DNA of 64,000 bases from Neophaeotheca triangularis. Lineage: Eukaryota. The DNA lies in assembly GCA_054600435.1 (NCBI GenBank), contig BAAIJX010000001.1:992001-1056000 (forward strand), written 5' to 3'. Below the pieces are notes generated by a model that did no database searches, had not been told where the DNA came from, and saw only the letters and a list, made by a program, of their open reading frames with translations. A program made the position numbers and the translations under genes. This document shows, piece after piece, positions 1 to 11,447 of this stretch; the first letter of the stretch is position 1, and each line of letters starts with the position of its first letter.

Positions 1-2927
1 GACTTTCGCGTCGGTGCTGGCGCTTTCGCTGCGTGCTAGGGCAATCGCACTTTGGAATGCGTTGCGGATCTGACGACCGTTCCAAGCTGGTCCTATGGAG
101 TTGATGTTCTGGTTTTGCTCTCCATAAAGTTGCCGTGCAAAGGCGATCAACGAATCTGGATTGCACTCCAGCTCCATTGGTGACTCGCATGCACGCCGCA
201 TCAGGTTCCGCCAGATCTTCTCGGTGGTCGGCCAATTCAGCGGTGGGTAGTACAAAGCCATATGTATCCTGGATTTGAAAGCCTCATCAAACACGCCGAT
301 CCTGTTGGTCGTCAAAAACCTAATGAACATGTTAAAGAAGCTCACGGTCATAAAACTATGGTTCTGACTTACAGGATGCCTTCGTAGTACTCCAGAATTC
401 GCAAAAAGACACTCACGAGGGCGTTTCGTTCGATATCCTGATTTGTGCGCTGCGCAAGAAAGATGTCCGCCTCGTCGAGAAGCATTACACAGTCCCATGC
501 TTGTGCCAATTGGAAGGCTGTCTCTAACGTCGTCTCGACTTCCCTGGGTTTGAGCCCCAGGTCGCCGCAGGTAATGGGCAGAAGAGGCTTGCCATACGAG
601 GCAGCCACACACTCTGCAGTCGCAGTCTTGCCGACGCCAGGTACTCCATGAAGTAATACGATGACTCCTTTGCCCTTTTCGCGGACAAGATCGAATTCCG
701 CGTTTCTCGACTTATCTTCCGAGAAATGAGTGTTGATGAGCGCCTGGACGATGTTTTTATGCCCAGTAGGAATCTCAAGGTCTTGCCAGGGGTCGCTTCG
801 CTGGTCGACATGAGTGAGATGCTTTCTACCGGAGTCGTCGGCACTGAGTCGTAGACAAGCTTTGTGTTCGGTCAGTTCTCTTCTGTCGGTCTGGTGGTCG
901 CGCAGACTTACCCCAGCTCCGTGTACGTAAGACGTAACCAAAGACCCTGTCGGGGAGAAGTAGAAGGTCATCGCCATCTGGCGTTGCCTCGCCTTTGTTC
1001 CACCGCTGCCGTTTCAGTTCCTCCGCCTTTAGAAAGTCCTCGCTGACTCTCGCATCCCAAACGTTATCTCTCGCAGCCCTCTCAATCCCGTCGAACAACT
1101 CGGCAACGTCACTTTTCCACCACTGTGGCTCGGTAGTCGCAGGCCCCCACTCCGGGTTCGCTTGTATACCGCGTTCGAAATCGATGACCACCTGACTTTC
1201 CACTCGTTCGGTGAACAATCGATGGGATTCGAAGTCCTCTTTATCCCGCCGGTAGAGAGGCTCTCCCCCTGGTGTTTGTGTTATTGTTGTGCCTTGATAG
1301 TACCGATGCTGTGGTTTCATATAGCCCAAGAATTGTTTCCCCCTTTCGCGAAGATATTTCCGGCTCGCAACGTGGCCTATGTCCTCAGCGACTGCAAGAG
1401 GGATAATTGGAAGGCCTGCAATAGACATAGAATTCTCGAACATTTCGATCTGGAACTGCCGATAGACCCGAATGAAGTTGGCGCCATCATGATCCAGGTA
1501 ATAACAGTCTACGATGAAGGGACTAAACTTGCCCTCCCAATCTAGAATGTCTTCGTTGGGCGTGCTCAGATATTTTCGGCCCCCAGTGGCTTGGACGACC
1601 TTCCAGATTTTCTGCGGCGTTGACCTGTCCATGGCATACGCGAGAGATCCAATGGGAAAGAGATGCCAAATGTTGCTGAAATTTATTGAAGTCGGCTCGC
1701 TGTTGAAATAGGTCCAGACAGGTTGCAAGTACTCGCTAATGAAGCGAACAAGACATCGAAAATCATCAACGGCTTCCTTGACTTCTGACAAGGTAAGCTC
1801 GGACCAGTCAGTGCCCGTGAGGAATATCATGTCCTGTGGAAACTTTCGTTGGGCCAATGATTCAGCTTCCTGCTTGGATTTGTTGTCCTTGGGCTGGATC
1901 TCAGTGTTCTCTTCGGTGTCGAAATCTTTGGCGTCGGTCCCGTGAATCCTTTCACTTTGCTGTTCGCAAGCTGCTGCCATAGGTTCGAGCGATTGACTGA
2001 GGCTGGTCTTAGCTGACCCGGCCTTCTGGAGTCTTTCATTATACAAGCACTCTATATCGGCCATCTTGTCTTTGATCTGACCTTCATGTATGGTGAGTAC
2101 CTTGTATGGGCGCATCATGACCAGCGTATCTGTCTCCGAAGAGAACTCCAATTCATCATTGCAAAGAGAATCCAGTAGTCGCTTGGCCGGGACAGAATTG
2201 ATCCTCAGTCTTGATGGCAAAGCTTTTGGAGCTGGCGTTGGCCCATCTTCTTTGCTAGGCAAACTCGATCGACCTTCCGGTATGGCAGCTGTGCTCGATC
2301 TTGGGATCCCGAGCAAAGATCTTCGGCCGCTTGTCCGCTGCGGTTGCGGCTCCTCATAGAGGATATCGATAGCCGAATGGCCTTTCCGGGTGCCTTCTCT
2401 AAGCGCGGTTCTCATCCATTCTTCCCAGGACATCAGCCTGATCTCGGGTACTGCAACTTCACGCGAGCCTTCTCCCGCTGTTGCGCTCGGTGGAGGCTCT
2501 TCGTACGCAAGTGTGTTGAGAATGAGATCGGTGGCAAGCGCAAGCTCGAGAAATATGTCTATCGCGCGACTTGAGACTTCATCCCCTGTCTTCTTACTAA
2601 TCTCCTCCCTGATTTTTGATCTTGTACTGAACGAATTCAATAGACTCGTGCTTCTCCCAGGGCCTTCGGCATTGTGGTAGTCGGCAGTCTTGCCTACTGT
2701 ATTAGCCTAAGCGAGGATCTCGGCCTAGACTCATGAAGTCGTACCTTCTCGTTCACGCTGTCGTTCTGTTGCTCTGGCGTGGGTTTTGCGAGCGGGTCAT
2801 CTTCTATCGTGGTGTCTGCTTCCTTTGCAGCTGCGCGAGGCTTTGGGGCTTGATGAGCCGCGAGTGGCTGGACAGGCGCCGTTTCGGTAGAGTCCGATGC
2901 CAATAGCGAAGATGCCACGGGATCCAT
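1..2927 (-). CDS. Large fungal AAA+ ATPase with long N-terminal region; 3' end runs off the left edge of the window
   Basis: ORFs 826-2640 and 369-977 join through a GTAAGT...AAG intron (911-860). Walker A GVPGVGKT and Walker B VMLLDEAD are present. After a further intron (~372-320) the frame continues FLTTNRIGVFDEAFKSRIHMALYYPPL...WNGRQIRNAFQSA (sensor/Arg-finger and lid motifs). The first exon (ATG 2927, donor 2744) is less certain. Confidence 0.9.
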
Positions 2928-3492
2928 TTCAAAGTAATCACCCTTGTCTCAGTAATTTCAGAGGCCTGGCGGAGCACTCAAGTCTGCACATACAAAGCGA
3001 GCGGGGAACTATATACTTAGCTGTGTGACTGGTGAAGGCGGCTTTGAATGGCAGTTTCCACCATGCAATGATGCTGCATGTGTTGGCTAATCATCGAGCT
3101 CGCCGTAATGGTTGTCCAGCAGTCAGATTTGTGGCTTAATGGAGCACATATTCCCGCAGTGCTCGAGGATCGCATGGACGCCTCCATTGGCCGGATTCGG
3201 CGCCTCGTTATATATGAGCTGAGCCAGCTGGGGCGAAGTGCAGGCTCGCTTCTACACGCATGTGATGATATATGAGCAGCTGGGACCGGTCGAGAGCGAA
3301 TCTCCGTGTTTAGAATAGATGTGGTCACGCGCACACGGTACGAATGGGGCGATACAACGTTGAGTACATGTAGTCGTAATCAGCAGCAATGCTGCGCCCA
3401 GTATGGGCGTCCTGATATCAGGCGAGGTGTCTCCCGGATCGGCCAGCATCGAGATCGCTTCTGTAGAGATATCTTAACAGCTCCCCGAAGAG

Positions 3493-5462
3493 ATGTCCAT
3501 GGCAGATGAGAACGCCGTGATCCAGCCGTATGTTACGAACACAGCCGCAGCGATCATTCGGCGCGACTCCACCGCCGCCTGGGATTCAGCTGTGGAAAAG
3601 TTCATTCCGCCGCGGCCCTCGTCAACGTATGTCCTCCATCCCCGCCGTCCTTTGCTCTTTCATTGTTTTCAGAGTATATCGTGATGCGCAGCAGGCACAG
3701 TGTTGATGGGATATCAGAGTTATCGCACGGACGAATGGCTTCAAATCCTTTGTCAACAAGCTCACTCATGAGTCGAAGCAACCTGCGCTCAAAAGGTTCC
3801 AGCTGTGCCAGAACTTCAAAATATCAGATGTACAACGCGAGGCGAACGCTGCGCTCCAAGCCTACGAAGAGCGTGGCAGCAGTCTGAGATTGCACTTCTT
3901 CCGCACGCTGGGCCGAGACTACAGCAACAACGCATCTGCGGCCGAGGCCTTACTAGCATTTCTGCCCGATGGTGAATACACATTCATCCTCTGCGGAGCG
4001 CTCACCCTTGTCTTCAACGTGAGGGTCGCCCATTGGTCACCACAGCCATACTGCTGATCGAAAGCTAACATCAGCTCAGGCCGCGAAGCGAGTGGCCAAA
4101 GTGCGTGAACAAATCCTCGACTGTCTCGGAGCCCTCACCCGCACTGTCGACGGGACAAAAGCCTTCCAGGAGCTCTACATTGGCGACAAGAGGCTGTGGG
4201 AAACTGCGGAGAGCTTGTATATCGCCTTGCTAGATGCTGTGCAGGATATCCTTGCATGGCTCGATGAAAGTGCCTGGAGGCGCACACTCGGCGCACTGTT
4301 CAAGCAAGAGAATTACAGCAAGCCGCTCGAAGACAAGATCAAGACGGCTGTCGAGACAAAAGTGCAAGAGTTTCACGACCAATTGGCATACTGCCAGCAC
4401 AAGAGAATCCGGCTGATTCACATCGGTGTAGATGGGATCGCTCGAAATATCAATAGCGTTCAAGCCAGCATACAGAAGGGGCAGACTGTTCAGCAGGAGC
4501 ATCACGAGGAGTTGATACATTTCCTTGTCTCAATGCTCAAAGGTCAGTTCTACACATTTGAGTGGCAGCGTAAATCGCAGCAGGCATTGCGGGAGGCGGT
4601 GGATCGGCTTGCTCAGAGGGACTATGACCAAACTATCTTGGTCACTCGAAGGCCACCGACGATTAGCTTTCGGGACCTGTTGAGCCTCCTGCAAGTCAAC
4701 CAGACAATCGTACAAGACGACTTGCGGCTCGCCATCCAGGATGGCCAAATGCTCTCGCCGGAAAGACAGGCCCGAGCCGCTTCCCTGTTCCAGCATGCAA
4801 GATTTCAATCATGGCTCCAGAGTGGGAGATGCGAGATCCTGGTCGTCAATGGGAAAGACCCGCAAAGCCAGTCGGCCACAATGTCACCCTTGACATACGT
4901 CGTGGGGCTGCTTGCACAGACGCTGTGGTCGACCCAGACGGCAGTACCCTTGGTTTGTATCAGTGGCAGACACGCCTCGCCTGACGATCCTCTCGATGGC
5001 GCGGAAGGCGTGTTGCGTCTTCTGATCTACCAGCTACTTTTCTACGCAGGAGAATCCTTGGACCTGTCACCACTCGACTACAACTTCATCGAGGCAATCG
5101 AAGCGGGCGACATCAGATATCTCCGCGAGCTCTTCAGGTTACTTGTCGTCTCTGTGGTCGTCACCATCAACAAGCCATGCACGATCGTGTGCTTGGTGGA
5201 CGGTTTGTCCTTTCTCGAGACAGACGCACGCAGACCTAAATTGGAGATCTTGGTCGCTTTCCTCCAACAACTTGTGCTTGACATTACCGACCTCGGCGGT
5301 TTTCTCGTCTTCAAGGTTCTGCTCGCCTACCCCTATATGAGCCAATACGCCCAAGAATGGTTCCTACCTGAAGCCATCTTGACCATGTCCGAAGATGCCG
5401 GCGGAGATCGCCAGGGTTACAATCTGGCGCGAATGTCGATGGTCTCAAAAAGTTGGTTATGA
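3493..5462 (+). CDS. NACHT/NLR-like protein with helical N-terminal domain and degenerate P-loop, ~605 aa, no C-terminal repeats
   Basis: Exons 3493-3626, 3718-4018 and 4080-5462 splice in frame (1818 nt). N-terminal LPDGEYTFILCGALTLVF-type helical domain; FQSWLQSGRCEILVVNG (pre-Walker-A motif of fungal NACHTs, but no GxxGxGK[ST]); Walker-B-like CLVDGLSFLE; FKVLL strand. Confidence 0.75.
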
Positions 5463-7176: not shown

Positions 7177-9741
7177 CTAAACAAACCCCCAAGCGCCTCC
7201 CCCACCCCCGCCCGCCACGCCCTGGACCCCAGCCCTACCCCCCTCAAGCCTTAAAACCTGATGCGGCGTACTAGCCGGATCGAAATAAAGGCCCTCGACC
7301 CTACCATCACTCCTGCGCAAGCTAACATAATAGAAACCTGAAATCGTCAGCCCATGTCCGCGATCTTGATCGCCTTCCTCGAGGGCGCCGGTCCGGGCAG
7401 CACCGGCAGCGCCCCCAGCGCCGCGCGATTGCTGGAATTCGCATTTCTCGTCCTTGGAGTGAATGAAGCAGCGCTCTTTCCAGCGCATGAAGATGTAGTT
7501 TTCCATTAGCTCGTTGAGGGAGGCCGTCGAGAGGAGGTTGTGGGCTATGGTGTCGGGGTTGGGGGGTTTGGATGAAGGAGGCTGCCAGCTGGTGGTGTTT
7601 GAGGAAGGGTCTTGGTCCGAGGTTTCGGATCGCATGTCGCTAAATGGCGGGAGGTGCGCCCAGTTTAAAGCATCTATGCCTGCCGTGGCGGCTGGGAAGG
7701 GAATTGAAGTTGCATGGGTTGTGTAAGGCGTGGCGTTTTGGGGTGCTGTTTCGTAGGCACCATGAGCTGATGCGCGACGCTCGCCGCGAATGGCCTCTTC
7801 GTAACGTTGGAGGGGCGACATGGTTGAGGAATGCGAAGGTGGTGTTAGGAAGGAGTGAGTACGGAGGTCGATGATCTGGCCTTCGACGAAAGTGGTGATT
7901 GGGGCGGCTTTTTTGCCAGCCCGGGGTGGAGCATTTGTGCCTTCGGGCAGAGGACCCGCGTGCTGAGGTACGTCGTAGGCTTCCATTGTACCCTGCAGGG
8001 TCATGGCTTCGGCATCGACGGAATGAAGTACGAAACGGACTGGCCATTGATCAAAGTGGTTTGGTTCTGCCGTAGGGTGTCCATTCGCCCAAAGGCGCTG
8101 GAATTGGGTATTTGGATCTGTAAATTGAATCACCATTAGACCAGGGACAAACGCGGACGCATAAGTTCGACCCCTTTGCCTGAGGCTGCGATCGTGAGAA
8201 CGAGACCTACCGCCTACTGTGGGTCTATGACCTCCCCGTCTGGTAAAGTTTGGGTTTATCTGCTCAACGTTGCGGTTGACGCTCTCCTGCCCTCTAAATA
8301 TCGCGTCGATGGGCGCAAGGTTGACGGGGGATGGTATAGTCGGGTTGGAGCTAGCGGGCTGTGGGTTAGTCTGGTTCCGGTTCGCGCTATCCTGTCTCCT
8401 ATGCGTGAGGTTGGCAGTGATATGGTTAGTAGCATGCTGATGCCCCTCAAACACTGCACCGGGTCGCAGCCACGAGCTCGCAGCTAGTGGCCGTATCCGG
8501 TCCAAGTCCATCACAAAGTCGTCCTGCTGGTCAACAAAGTGCGCCTTAGTGGCCAGGGAGTTTTCGATAGCCATGGTCACGCTATCATGGTAGTCCGAGG
8601 TGTCGCGCAAATCACTAAGAAATTTGAGCGTGTTCTCGAGTAGCCAGGGCTGCGGATTTCCTCCACTTGTGTTCGTCTGCGCTGTGGCTGGATCTTCTGC
8701 AAGTACCGGCGGCGAAGCAATGCGCGGTAGCCGTGGATAACCAGTCTCAGCCAAGTAGCCCCTTCTGAAAGCTGCAACGCGCTCCTGTCTATCCCGCTCC
8801 TGCCTAACGCGCTCCCGCCTCTCATTCTCTCTGGTAACAGTGTTGGCCCTTTCGTTCGCTCCGCCAATCCAGCCCTGTCTCTGCGCCCTTTCTTCCTCTT
8901 CACTCATCCCGCTCCTTTCACGCTCAATAACATACCGCAGCATCCTATCCGTGGCACTTGGCGATCCCTCCTGCCTTGCCCTTTGCAGCACCGCCCCTCT
9001 CCGCAGATTGAACCTCTCGCGCTCTCTCCGTCGCCTCACCTCAGCCTGGGTCTCGCCCGTGCCTCGTGCCACCACCGCATCAGCTTGGTCCCGGAGGTGT
9101 CGCGCTTCACCACGCTGGCGAATTATTTCCGCTCGGGCCATGACCCTCATCACTGCAGGATCTCCGCCCGGTGTTTGATACTGTCTCAACTCCGCAAGAA
9201 TGCTTTCCAGCTCTGCCTCATCTTGTGCTGCTTCCGCGTAAGCTGGCGCCCAATCGTACAAACTTTGTCTAGTCGGCGAAGGTGGACGGTCACCATAAGC
9301 AGCTGGTGTAGATTGAATGTAGGGCGCGGCGCCGCTGTCGGTAGACCCATGTGAACGGTTCAGTCGAGCGAGGACCCTCTGCAACCTCTCGCGCCTAGTA
9401 AGATCTTCGGAGATGTCTCGTGTGGGAGACGGGCTGGCAGCCGCGGTCTGAGCTTCGTTCTGGTCGTCCATGCTAGAGGGCTGGCCCCTCGCTGCTGCAG
9501 CTGTACGTTGTGTTCCCGCTTCTCCTAGATTGTTCGAGGCGTGAGTTGCCCACTCTTCGTGCATGCGGCGTAGCTCTCCTTCAATGCGTTCGTTTCTCAA
9601 GGCGGCGCTGCCGCTGTTTTGAGCCTGCTCTGCAGTCTCTGTGTGCAACGTGCTGGCGAGATCGGGCGCGGGTGATTCGAGATATGCTAAGGGTGGCAGA
9701 GGTGAGTCTGAACGTCCATTGGGACTATTGGCCGGCGGCAT
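7177..9741 (-). CDS. GID4/Vid24-family (vacuolar import and degradation) protein with long N-terminal extension
   Basis: SWLRPGAVFEGHQ, WPVRFVLHSVD, ITTFVEGQIID, YIFMRWKERCF and GLTISGFYYVSLRRSDGRVEGLYFDP motifs typical of the Vid24/GID4 domain. Probable in-frame intron at 8210-8118. Confidence 0.85.
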   Translation of the reverse strand: MPPANSPNGRSDSPLPPLAYLESPAPDLASTLHTETAEQAQNSGSAALRNERIEGELRRMHEEWATHASNNLGEAGTQRTAAAARGQPSSMDDQNEAQTAAASPSPTRDISEDLTRRERLQRVLARLNRSHGSTDSGAAPYIQSTPAAYGDRPPSPTRQSLYDWAPAYAEAAQDEAELESILAELRQYQTPGGDPAVMRVMARAEIIRQRGEARHLRDQADAVVARGTGETQAEVRRRRERERFNLRRGAVLQRARQEGSPSATDRMLRYVIERERSGMSEEEERAQRQGWIGGANERANTVTRENERRERVRQERDRQERVAAFRRGYLAETGYPRLPRIASPPVLAEDPATAQTNTSGGNPQPWLLENTLKFLSDLRDTSDYHDSVTMAIENSLATKAHFVDQQDDFVMDLDRIRPLAASSWLRPGAVFEGHQHATNHITANLTHRRQDSANRNQTNPQPASSNPTIPSPVNLAPIDAIFRGQESVNRNVEQINPNFTRRGGHRPTVGGRSRSHDRSLRQRGRTYASAFVPGLMVIQFTDPNTQFQRLWANGHPTAEPNHFDQWPVRFVLHSVDAEAMTLQGTMEAYDVPQHAGPLPEGTNAPPRAGKKAAPITTFVEGQIIDLRTHSFLTPPSHSSTMSPLQRYEEAIRGERRASAHGAYETAPQNATPYTTHATSIPFPAATAGIDALNWAHLPPFSDMRSETSDQDPSSNTTSWQPPSSKPPNPDTIAHNLLSTASLNELMENYIFMRWKERCFIHSKDEKCEFQQSRGAGGAAGAARTGALEEGDQDRGHGLTISGFYYVSLRRSDGRVEGLYFDPASTPHQVLRLEGGRAGVQGVAGGGGGGAWGFV

Positions 9742-11447
9742 ATCTCTGCCTTTGTACTCTCAAAGTGAGAATGAGGTTGTCGTCGGGCGGCTATTGCATG
9801 TTGCTAGCGAGTAAGAAACGCCTCAACAACGCGGCGTACTGGATTTCCTGAAGAATTGAATTCTTTCGATCGGGTTAGGACTCGACGAGGGTCGTTTGGT
9901 CGACGGTTGCAGACTATTTGTGCCGTAGTCGTTGAGGTAAACACAAAGGAAGTCGTAGGTCAAGCATCGCGAGGTTCCTTGGGCGTCATCAATCGCCAAG
10001 ATTGTCGCTGTCACATGCCACCATCTCGAACGCAGCAATCAACTACGCCCCAATTATTGTTAGATGGCTTTGGATCGAAGGCCAGAAGGATCTACTAGAT
10101 TGGAAAGCAAAGGAGTCGTAGATGAGACGCAGACGGCTTTCTCGCGAGTCGAAAAGAAATTTGATTAACAACTAAACAAACCGTAGAACCAGCTACGGTG
10201 AAGCCAGCAAAGGCAAACTAACTTAAAAATACCAGCATCCATTTACCCCAGCCAGACCCATCAAGGGCAGGCGCAATATTCCAAGGGGCTTCTCCTCCAA
10301 GCCGGTGGGGAGTATAGCAGGATGATCGCTATCCTTTGACCGCCCCCACCCCTCTTCCCTCCAAAACCATTTCCCACCTTGCCAATCAAGGCGTACGAAG
10401 AGTTCTGGTACCCATGGTCCAAAGACAGGAATGGTTAGAAGAACCGGTGAATCCACCACTTGGAGCGCGCTGGGAAGTCTACCTCTCCACTACGCAGTAG
10501 GGAGAAACAACCGACACGCAACTTCAAGGCAAGTCCCATCACAGATGAGGAGTTGTCGCAGGTGAAAAATTCAGTCCGGTCAGATCAACCAATCCGTGCA
10601 ATCTTCCTGGTGAGGGTGAGAGTAAGGGTGGACGGCCATATTAAGAGCCAAGCGCTCCCAGAACGCTGTCAAAGGGCCCAAAAAAGGGGGTCGCCGGTCG
10701 CCGAAGATGGTCTCAGCAGGTGCGGGGATGGCGCGGTGAAGCAACCACATCCCAGGCGCAAACCAGTCGCGCCCTCCGCCGAGACCTGTGAATTCGTCGT
10801 GCAGATGCCCTCGTCACCATGCGCGGCCTGCCCTGCAACCAATCCCGCCTGTCTGGCAGAGCGAGAAAGTTCACAAGAGCTGGTATTGCGCAGGCTTCCA
10901 GGCTTCCGCAAAGGCATTGGTAGAAGCGAAGCGAGTCTGTAACCCAGCAGTCTCGCGAGTTGGTAGTGTAATAGTATCCGAAGCCAGAGAGGAAACCGTG
11001 GACGGACGTTAGCACCCGTGAATGAAATGAAAACGATCCTATGTGCTGCTGGCCGTGAGGCCTTCGAAACGCTGTCTTGCAGTGCATGCCTCGCCATTCG
11101 CTTGCCACAACAGGAGAGTCGAGGTTTCCAAAATGCTTCGATGCGCTGAAAGATGAACGAAAGCCATACGAAAAATTAGCGCCATCCCGTATGCGTGTCC
11201 CGTGAAAAGAAAAATTTGTCCCGTGATCTTTCTGGTTTATCGGAAATATGTTTGACATGATGATCAACATCGGGGTATCATATCGCATTGTACATCGTCG
11301 AAAAAGAGAGAATTGGGAAGACAGTCGTGGTACCATTGTCAAGGGAATCCTGATGCGCATCCAGGTGGTGTTGTCCCTTTCCGAAAGCTCGATGATGTTG
11401 CGTCGAGAAGAGCAGAGCGGCATTTGCTTCGGTTGCCAGGCAGCATG

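Follow-up and report, generated by a model that had tools for sequence, protein, structure and literature searches.

A conserved divergent pairing of an AAA+ ATPase gene with a P-loop-less relative of fungal NLRs in Neophaeotheca triangularis

We analyzed a 64,000-nucleotide stretch of the Neophaeotheca triangularis genome (GenBank assembly GCA_054600435.1, contig BAAIJX010000001.1, positions 992,001 to 1,056,000 of the forward strand), referred to here as the window. Its first 5,462 nucleotides contain two divergently transcribed genes. One, on the minus strand, encodes an AAA+ ATPase. The other, on the plus strand, encodes a smaller protein, which we call the partner. By its sequence, the partner appears to be derived from the Goodbye-like/DUF7708-NACHT lineage of fungal NOD-like receptors (NLRs) and to have shed its P-loop, winged-helix arm and sensor repeats. 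The pairing, which is conserved and for which the literature search found no description, joins a protein derived from NLRs to an AAA family that is known but uncharacterised. The two genes may form a co-inherited divergent unit of the Dothideomycetes whose ATPase works together with the partner, a putative pseudo-NTPase, or upon it. We judge the chances of this reading to be evenly balanced.

The features of the pair are as follows, in window positions. P0001 and P0026 are deposited proteins, and L001-L004 are related metagenome loci.

1..319, minus strand: last visible exon of the AAA gene, lid domain (Pfam AAA_lid_13, 1.2e-10; prefix match to P0026)
373..859, minus strand: ATPase-core exon of the AAA gene (Pfam AAA, 5.6e-14; alignment to the AAA domains of NVL/Rix7/Afg2)
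912..2706, minus strand: large 5' exon of the AAA gene, N-terminal region and DUF7025 at about 1390-1695 (Pfam DUF7025, 5.3e-20; tblastn)
2707..3492, no strand: shared divergent intergenic region, which may include a short 5' exon of the AAA gene at 2745-2927 (blastn among the intergenic regions)
3493..3626, plus strand: partner exon 1, residues 1-44 and part of 45 (identity to P0001; exon kept in L001-L004)
3718..4018, plus strand: partner exon 2, residues 45-145, where the DUF7708/Goodbye-like helical domain begins (gene model, Pfam, tblastn)
4080..5462, plus strand: partner exon 3, residues 146-605 and stop (Pfam, AlphaFold model, VIA-align matches)
4851..4886, plus strand: degenerate P-loop of the partner, GKDPQSQSATMS, replacing GxxxxGK[ST] (family alignment)
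5190..5204, plus strand: Walker-B-like strand of the partner, CLVDG (family alignment)

Both gene models match deposited proteins, which bears out the divergent AAA+/partner pair that a first-pass annotation, made from the sequence alone, had placed here. The partner model (605 aa) is letter-identical to P0001, a hypothetical protein of N. triangularis. The AAA reading in the window is an exact prefix of the 889-aa P0026, counted from the P0026 start. The last 218 residues lie beyond the window edge and consist mostly of a Q/P/S-rich tail. The two introns of the AAA gene are 53 and 52 nt long and have GT..AG ends. Exon 3 of the partner holds the remainder of DUF7708 (to about 4313), the ~100-residue predicted helix and a nucleotide-binding-like domain (about 4671-5414).

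The partner matches the Pfam family DUF7708 (Goodbye-like) at 1.3e-5, with 25.5 bits against a cut-off of 25. Its match to NPHP3_N, the P-loop part of NACHT, reaches 19.7 bits and lies under the cut-off of 24.8. Relatives reach 1.9e-13 for DUF7708 and up to 1e-14 for NPHP3_N, the latter with 25-55 bits in many, above the cut-off. A search of 1.84 billion cluster representatives returned 1117 relatives at E <= 0.001, 430 of them at E <= 1e-10. Most are 550-740 aa long and align end to end. DUF7708 and/or NPHP3_N are matched (E <= 0.001) by 54 of the 56 scanned relatives of at least 600 aa, many well over the cut-offs. The sole other family among these 56 is a single sub-threshold match to DUF1664. 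The 20 named relatives belong to Dothideomycetes, lichen-forming fungi, Aspergillus, Colletotrichum, Fusarium and Xylariales. Conservation of the partner is high, with identities of 64-80% in 17 of 24 homologue matches. One member of the P-loop-less family, P0044 from Fusarium sp. NRRL 52700, carries the source name '(dimethylallyl)adenosine tRNA methylthiotransferase' and looks mis-annotated. The partner orthologue P0038 from Bogoriella megaspora (973 aa) is longer at its C-terminus by ~420 residues that match no Pfam family at E <= 0.001; they may be a real extension or an artefact of the gene model.

The Walker A position of the partner reads GKDPQSQS, with Q replacing the lysine. We aligned 89 family members, comprising 5 named homologues and 84 representatives of at least 500 aa; 63 shorter ones were omitted as likely fragments. 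The motif GxxxxGK[ST] is found in none of the 89, and a stray GK[ST] tripeptide occurs in two. The Walker-B-like CLVDG is retained, with D519 shared by at least 90% of 85 family members. Loss of the P-loop is an old trait maintained across the family rather than recent decay: the motif is missing from all 89, whose fold and Walker-B-like aspartate have been retained. The winged-helix/HETHS arm is not found in the partner either. The nucleotide-binding domain ends at about residue 590 and the protein stops at 605, ~15 residues further on, so both the arm and the sensor of an NLR are missing. Pfam found no ANK, TPR or WD40 repeat family in the partner or in the 56 relatives.

Structure prediction agrees with this domain assignment. 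A first model, built with 12 sequences, was poor in the N-terminal half (predicted local distance difference test, pLDDT, 56.7). A second AlphaFold model, with 85 sequences, has a mean pLDDT of 83.9. In the second model, the N-terminal half is all-helical and includes one helix of ~100 residues, and residues 343-593 form an alpha/beta domain. In VIA-align, this domain matches Avs3 (Z 11.8, root mean square deviation 3.6, 193 residues aligned), Cdc6 and subunits of the origin recognition complex (ORC) (Z 10.5-11.6), the ZAR1 resistosome (Z 11.0) and CED-4 (Z 9.3). NRC2 and Apaf-1 also match. The C-terminal half is predicted to be a nucleotide-binding domain of the type found in ORC and in STAND proteins (signal transduction ATPases having numerous domains). 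Judged by the model alone, the STAND and ORC/Cdc6 types are tied, and NACHT descent was chosen over the ORC type because the sequences of the relatives match NPHP3_N. Foldseek searches of the PDB with either model returned nothing at E <= 0.001, the weak top rows being ORC subunits. A sequence profile of the partner found nothing among solved structures (best E 0.29). The first-pass annotation had described the partner as a protein with a helical N-terminal domain, a NACHT-like fold, no Walker A lysine and no repeats. The Pfam matches, the alignment and the model agree with it on each of these points.

The ATPase is intact, as that annotation had also proposed. Walker A (GVPGVGKT) is located at 624-647 and Walker B (MLLDE; LLDEAD in the alignment) at 471-485. 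The sensor-1 motif TTNR is intact and spans the next intron. These motifs were aligned to NVL/Rix7/Afg2. The domains DUF7025, AAA and AAA_lid_13 (PF22942, PF00004, PF23232) follow one another in this order, and with its intact Walker A and B motifs the protein agrees in all these features with the fungal DUF7025-AAA-AAA_lid_13 ATPases. An identical precomputed domain set is present in 10 of 11 AAA homologue matches (P0026-P0032 and P0034-P0036). The window member differs from the family in its Q/P/S-rich C-terminal tail and its conserved pseudo-NLR neighbor. By sequence, the solved proteins nearest to it are AAA proteins of the classical clade: NVL/Rix7, Afg2, fidgetin-like 1, p97 and Msp1 (E 3e-9 to 1e-6). 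A full-text search of the literature turned up no paper naming DUF7025, and the family has no described function.

The C-terminal tail of the ATPase (P0026 residues about 720-889, outside the window) comprises ~170 residues, including 30 Q, 27 P and 23 S. It is of low complexity and prion-like in composition, and P0027, the Cladosporium orthologue, has a tail of similar kind. Among the anti-phage defence models of PADLOC, the best match of the ATPase is IetA (1.6e-9, 35.7 bits), which is confined to the AAA core; TRIP13 models match too. Bacteria, mostly Burkholderiales (L005-L045), encode proteins of 550-590 aa with a C-terminal AAA core 40-49% identical to that of the fungal ATPase, for example L012:6969-8726 and L005:6993-8636. 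Their N-terminal regions differ and have no Pfam match, and their best defence model is IetA (down to 3.8e-20). The gene adjoining the homologue in L005 encodes HATPase_c and Toprim domains. A scan of prokaryote genome contigs returned such AAA homologues only, and the neighborhoods were unrelated in the two loci inspected.

The two genes are linked in other genomes, those of black-yeast relatives that are only distantly related to one another. Four related metagenome loci were found. A divergent AAA homologue next to the partner was read directly, by tblastn with the window exons, in L001, L002 and L003, all three of the loci whose upstream DNA is long enough; in L004 it spans just 519 bp. 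L001 and L003 are 99.6% identical over 979 bp of intergenic DNA and represent one lineage, so the metagenomes contribute two independent lineages in all. Three named genomes carry the pair as consecutive locus tags on contigs of the same length. In Cladosporium fusiforme, the ATPase is Q7P37_005541 and the partner Q7P37_005542, with identities of 55% (AAA N-terminal region) and 72% (partner). The corresponding genes are LTR95_003425 and LTR95_003424 in Oleoguttula sp. (38% and 50%), and M1820_007285 and M1820_007284 in Bogoriella megaspora (39% and 37%). Four further pairs of partner and AAA matches have an equal 'longest contig' (7603, 9142, 12158 and 8353), which is suggestive only. For ten more named partner relatives, no locus tag adjoins that of any listed AAA gene.

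Conservation is also found between the two genes. A non-coding block of ~37 bp at window 3215-3251, TGAGCTGAGCC...GGGGC.AA...GCTCGCT, is conserved among the window, L002 and L004. The GAGCTGAGC core recurs in all four lineages (the window, L001 with L003, L002, and L004), at 246-465 bp upstream of the partner ATG. This block may be a shared promoter or 5' untranslated region element.

The AAA gene has three candidate starts: 2118, used in the deposited model; 2433, the first in-frame ATG of the open frame; and an ATG at 2927, in the possible 5' exon. The coding frame is open as far as 2706. Window positions 2434-2706 are conserved at the protein level in L001 and L003 (tblastn) and match the N-terminal part of P0027 (1103 aa). 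Because relatives conserve coding there, the true start probably lies upstream of 2433. The deposited P0026 model looks N-terminally truncated. A start at 2927 requires a 38-nt intron, which is unusually short. Depending on the AAA start, the start-to-start spacing is somewhere between about 566 and 790 bp. The ~565 bp given by the first-pass annotation is one possible value, and it assumes the ATG at 2927 and its 38-nt intron.

On the far side of the AAA gene, L002 contains genes for a VPS9-domain protein and a phosphoglycerate kinase (PGK); it is the one related locus that shows that side. The gene directly after the partner (7180-9759, minus strand) encodes a long protein of low complexity whose C-terminal domain is Vac_ImportDeg (Vid24/Gid4-type; 2.6e-20). 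It is followed in the window by genes for glycoside hydrolases, an amidohydrolase, an RRM protein, an S41 peptidase, a C2H2 factor, Pal1, MAGE and an F-box/LRR protein. About 960 bp downstream of the partner in L001 have no match anywhere in the window.

Several known systems resemble the pair in part. ORC subunits and the clamp-loader delta-prime subunit are nucleotide-blind, AAA+-like subunits within ATPase assemblies. The partner aligns with ORC/Cdc6 subunits at the Z-scores given above, and its fold appears to be kept without a working P-loop, as in some of those subunits. It differs from the ORC and clamp-loader subunits in its NACHT descent, as judged by sequence. In IetAS, an AAA ATPase (IetA) is encoded next to a protease (IetS), so a two-gene layout with an AAA ATPase is common to both systems. 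In contrast to IetS, which is subtilisin-like, the partner has no PADLOC match and no peptidase match in Pfam. The similarity to IetAS is limited to the AAA core, and the host here is a eukaryote.

The fungal NACHT-type NLRs with Goodbye-like/DUF7708 N-terminal domains, as described in the sections of Dyrka et al. 2014 covered here (PMC4986451), share with the partner the family of the N-terminal domain and the type of the nucleotide-binding domain. Unlike them, the partner lacks the winged-helix/HETHS arm as well as ANK, TPR or WD40 repeats, and its family has no Walker A. Linked genes encoding an NLR and its functional partner are described for NWD2/HET-S of Podospora in the covered part of PMC4344463, and divergent, head-to-head linked NLR pairs of plants in that of PMC4246468. 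Tight linkage is common to these systems and the pair in the window, whereas the second gene here codes for neither an NLR nor a pore-former but for an AAA ATPase. A shared signaling motif of the NWD2/HET-S type was not found between P0001 and P0026 by BLASTP (best E 0.20), which is a coarse test for a short motif.

If the pair acts together, the following scheme may apply. The pseudo-NTPase would be unable to switch by nucleotide exchange as a true NLR does. It could work with the neighboring ATPase as a client, an adaptor or a regulatory subunit. ATP-dependent control of the assembly state or availability of the partner would then be supplied in trans by the ATPase. Co-regulation of the genes, physical contact of the proteins and the direction of action are parts of the scheme that we infer. 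Simple threading of the partner by the ATPase should not be assumed, because the pore-loop-1 position (window 548-580) reads GDLGLKPREVE, has no aromatic residue and resembles NVL/Rix7 D1, whereas threading AAA unfoldases of the Msp1, p97 D2 and Vps4 type have an aromatic-hydrophobic-glycine pore loop 1. A complex prediction with residues 1-420 of the ATPase and residues 40-605 of the partner, run without controls, returned no verdict at a score of 0.00.

The main rival is that the two genes are mere neighbors. The pair would be kept by descent, perhaps through a bidirectional promoter that is costly to break, and its products would be functionally unrelated. We regard this as a serious possibility, with somewhat less than an even chance. 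Like the pore loop, several observations weigh against joint action and most of them fit this rival. The verified pairs all belong to one orthologous lineage within a single fungal class, the Dothideomycetes, and descent with retained synteny could explain them. In the three named genomes, the adjacency is one of tag order only, with orientation not read. None of the 56 scanned relatives of the partner is fused to an AAA or DUF7025 domain, and the two proteins have no common sequence motif in the BLASTP comparison above. The flanking genes are housekeeping ones, VPS9-domain and PGK in L002 and Vac_ImportDeg, glycosidases and RRM in the window, and the locus is ordinary core genome. The window extends past the pair only on the side of the partner, and L002 only on that of the ATPase. 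The overlap of the window with the related loci is thus limited to the pair itself, which leaves no yardstick for the retention of other neighbors. For Cryoendolithus antarcticus, two partner homologues and no AAA orthologue were returned, and for Rachicladosporium, an AAA orthologue and no partner. These searches were demonstrably incomplete: the AAA profile search left out three sequences of the very alignment it was queried with, and such absences mean little. Two points argue against the neighbors-only explanation. The adjacency persists at protein identities of 37-39% in Bogoriella, and gene order in Dothideomycetes is shuffled within chromosomes (mesosynteny).

A second rival is an immune or cell-death module, in which the Goodbye-like domain would be a death effector that the ATPase restrains or triggers, perhaps aided by a further component, for example a protease. 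We consider it quite unlikely. Polymorphic fungal NLRs are usually described from variable, patchy regions, unlike the pair, which is conserved and lies in the core genome. The partner has no sensor domain to receive a signal. The match of the ATPase to IetA, its best anti-phage model, speaks for such a module; it is confined to the generic AAA core, however, and the partner has no PADLOC match at all. The lineage of the partner, supported by Pfam and by the UniRef name of P0052, is also consistent with an immune role, since the covered sections of Dyrka et al. tie fungal NLRs to non-self recognition and cell death (PMC4986451). In the same sections, the Goodbye-like domain is listed as being of unknown function. 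The first-pass annotation had put the pair forward as a candidate defence or cell-death module, with the AAA motor remodeling the partner. Two outcomes that it had named as speaking against its idea, unlinked homologues in other genomes and a partner without a NACHT/STAND fold, were looked for, and neither was obtained. The functional proposal found no direct support. The locus is a housekeeping one, the partner is conserved and not hypervariable, and the pore loop is non-aromatic. A third component, such as a protease, which the annotation thought could lie left of the window, was not borne out: VPS9-domain and PGK genes occupy that position in L002, the sole locus showing that side, and no protease or other candidate third gene adjoins the pair there.

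A broader form of the proposal that the two proteins act together would make the pair an ancient module of the Pezizomycotina. An NLR lineage would have ceded its nucleotide switch and sensor to a dedicated neighboring AAA+ ATPase, which would assemble or separate Goodbye-like domains. Such an 'NLR in two genes' might govern a cell-fate or stress decision. We think this unlikely and offer it as speculation. The literature search found no account of an AAA ATPase paired with a P-loop-less relative of NLRs, including in the parts of PMC12258605 and PMC4986451 that it covered, and no paper naming DUF7708 was found by full-text search.

Fungal NLR-like proteins are numerous, and most are functionally uncharacterised. 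A large branch of them (430 representatives at E <= 1e-10) appears, from its sequences, to keep the NLR scaffold without the usual nucleotide binding. One lineage of this branch stays beside a particular AAA+ ATPase over deep divergence. If the two proteins act independently of each other, well-preserved synteny is all that the pair represents. If they act jointly, the DUF7025 ATPases and the P-loop-less DUF7708-NACHT proteins would each gain a testable functional partner, and the pair would represent a new mode of regulating an NLR-type scaffold. Should the 'NLR in two genes' prove true, the P-loop-less family, with its 1117 cluster representatives, would constitute a second branch of NLR biology in fungi, one that has gone unrecognised.

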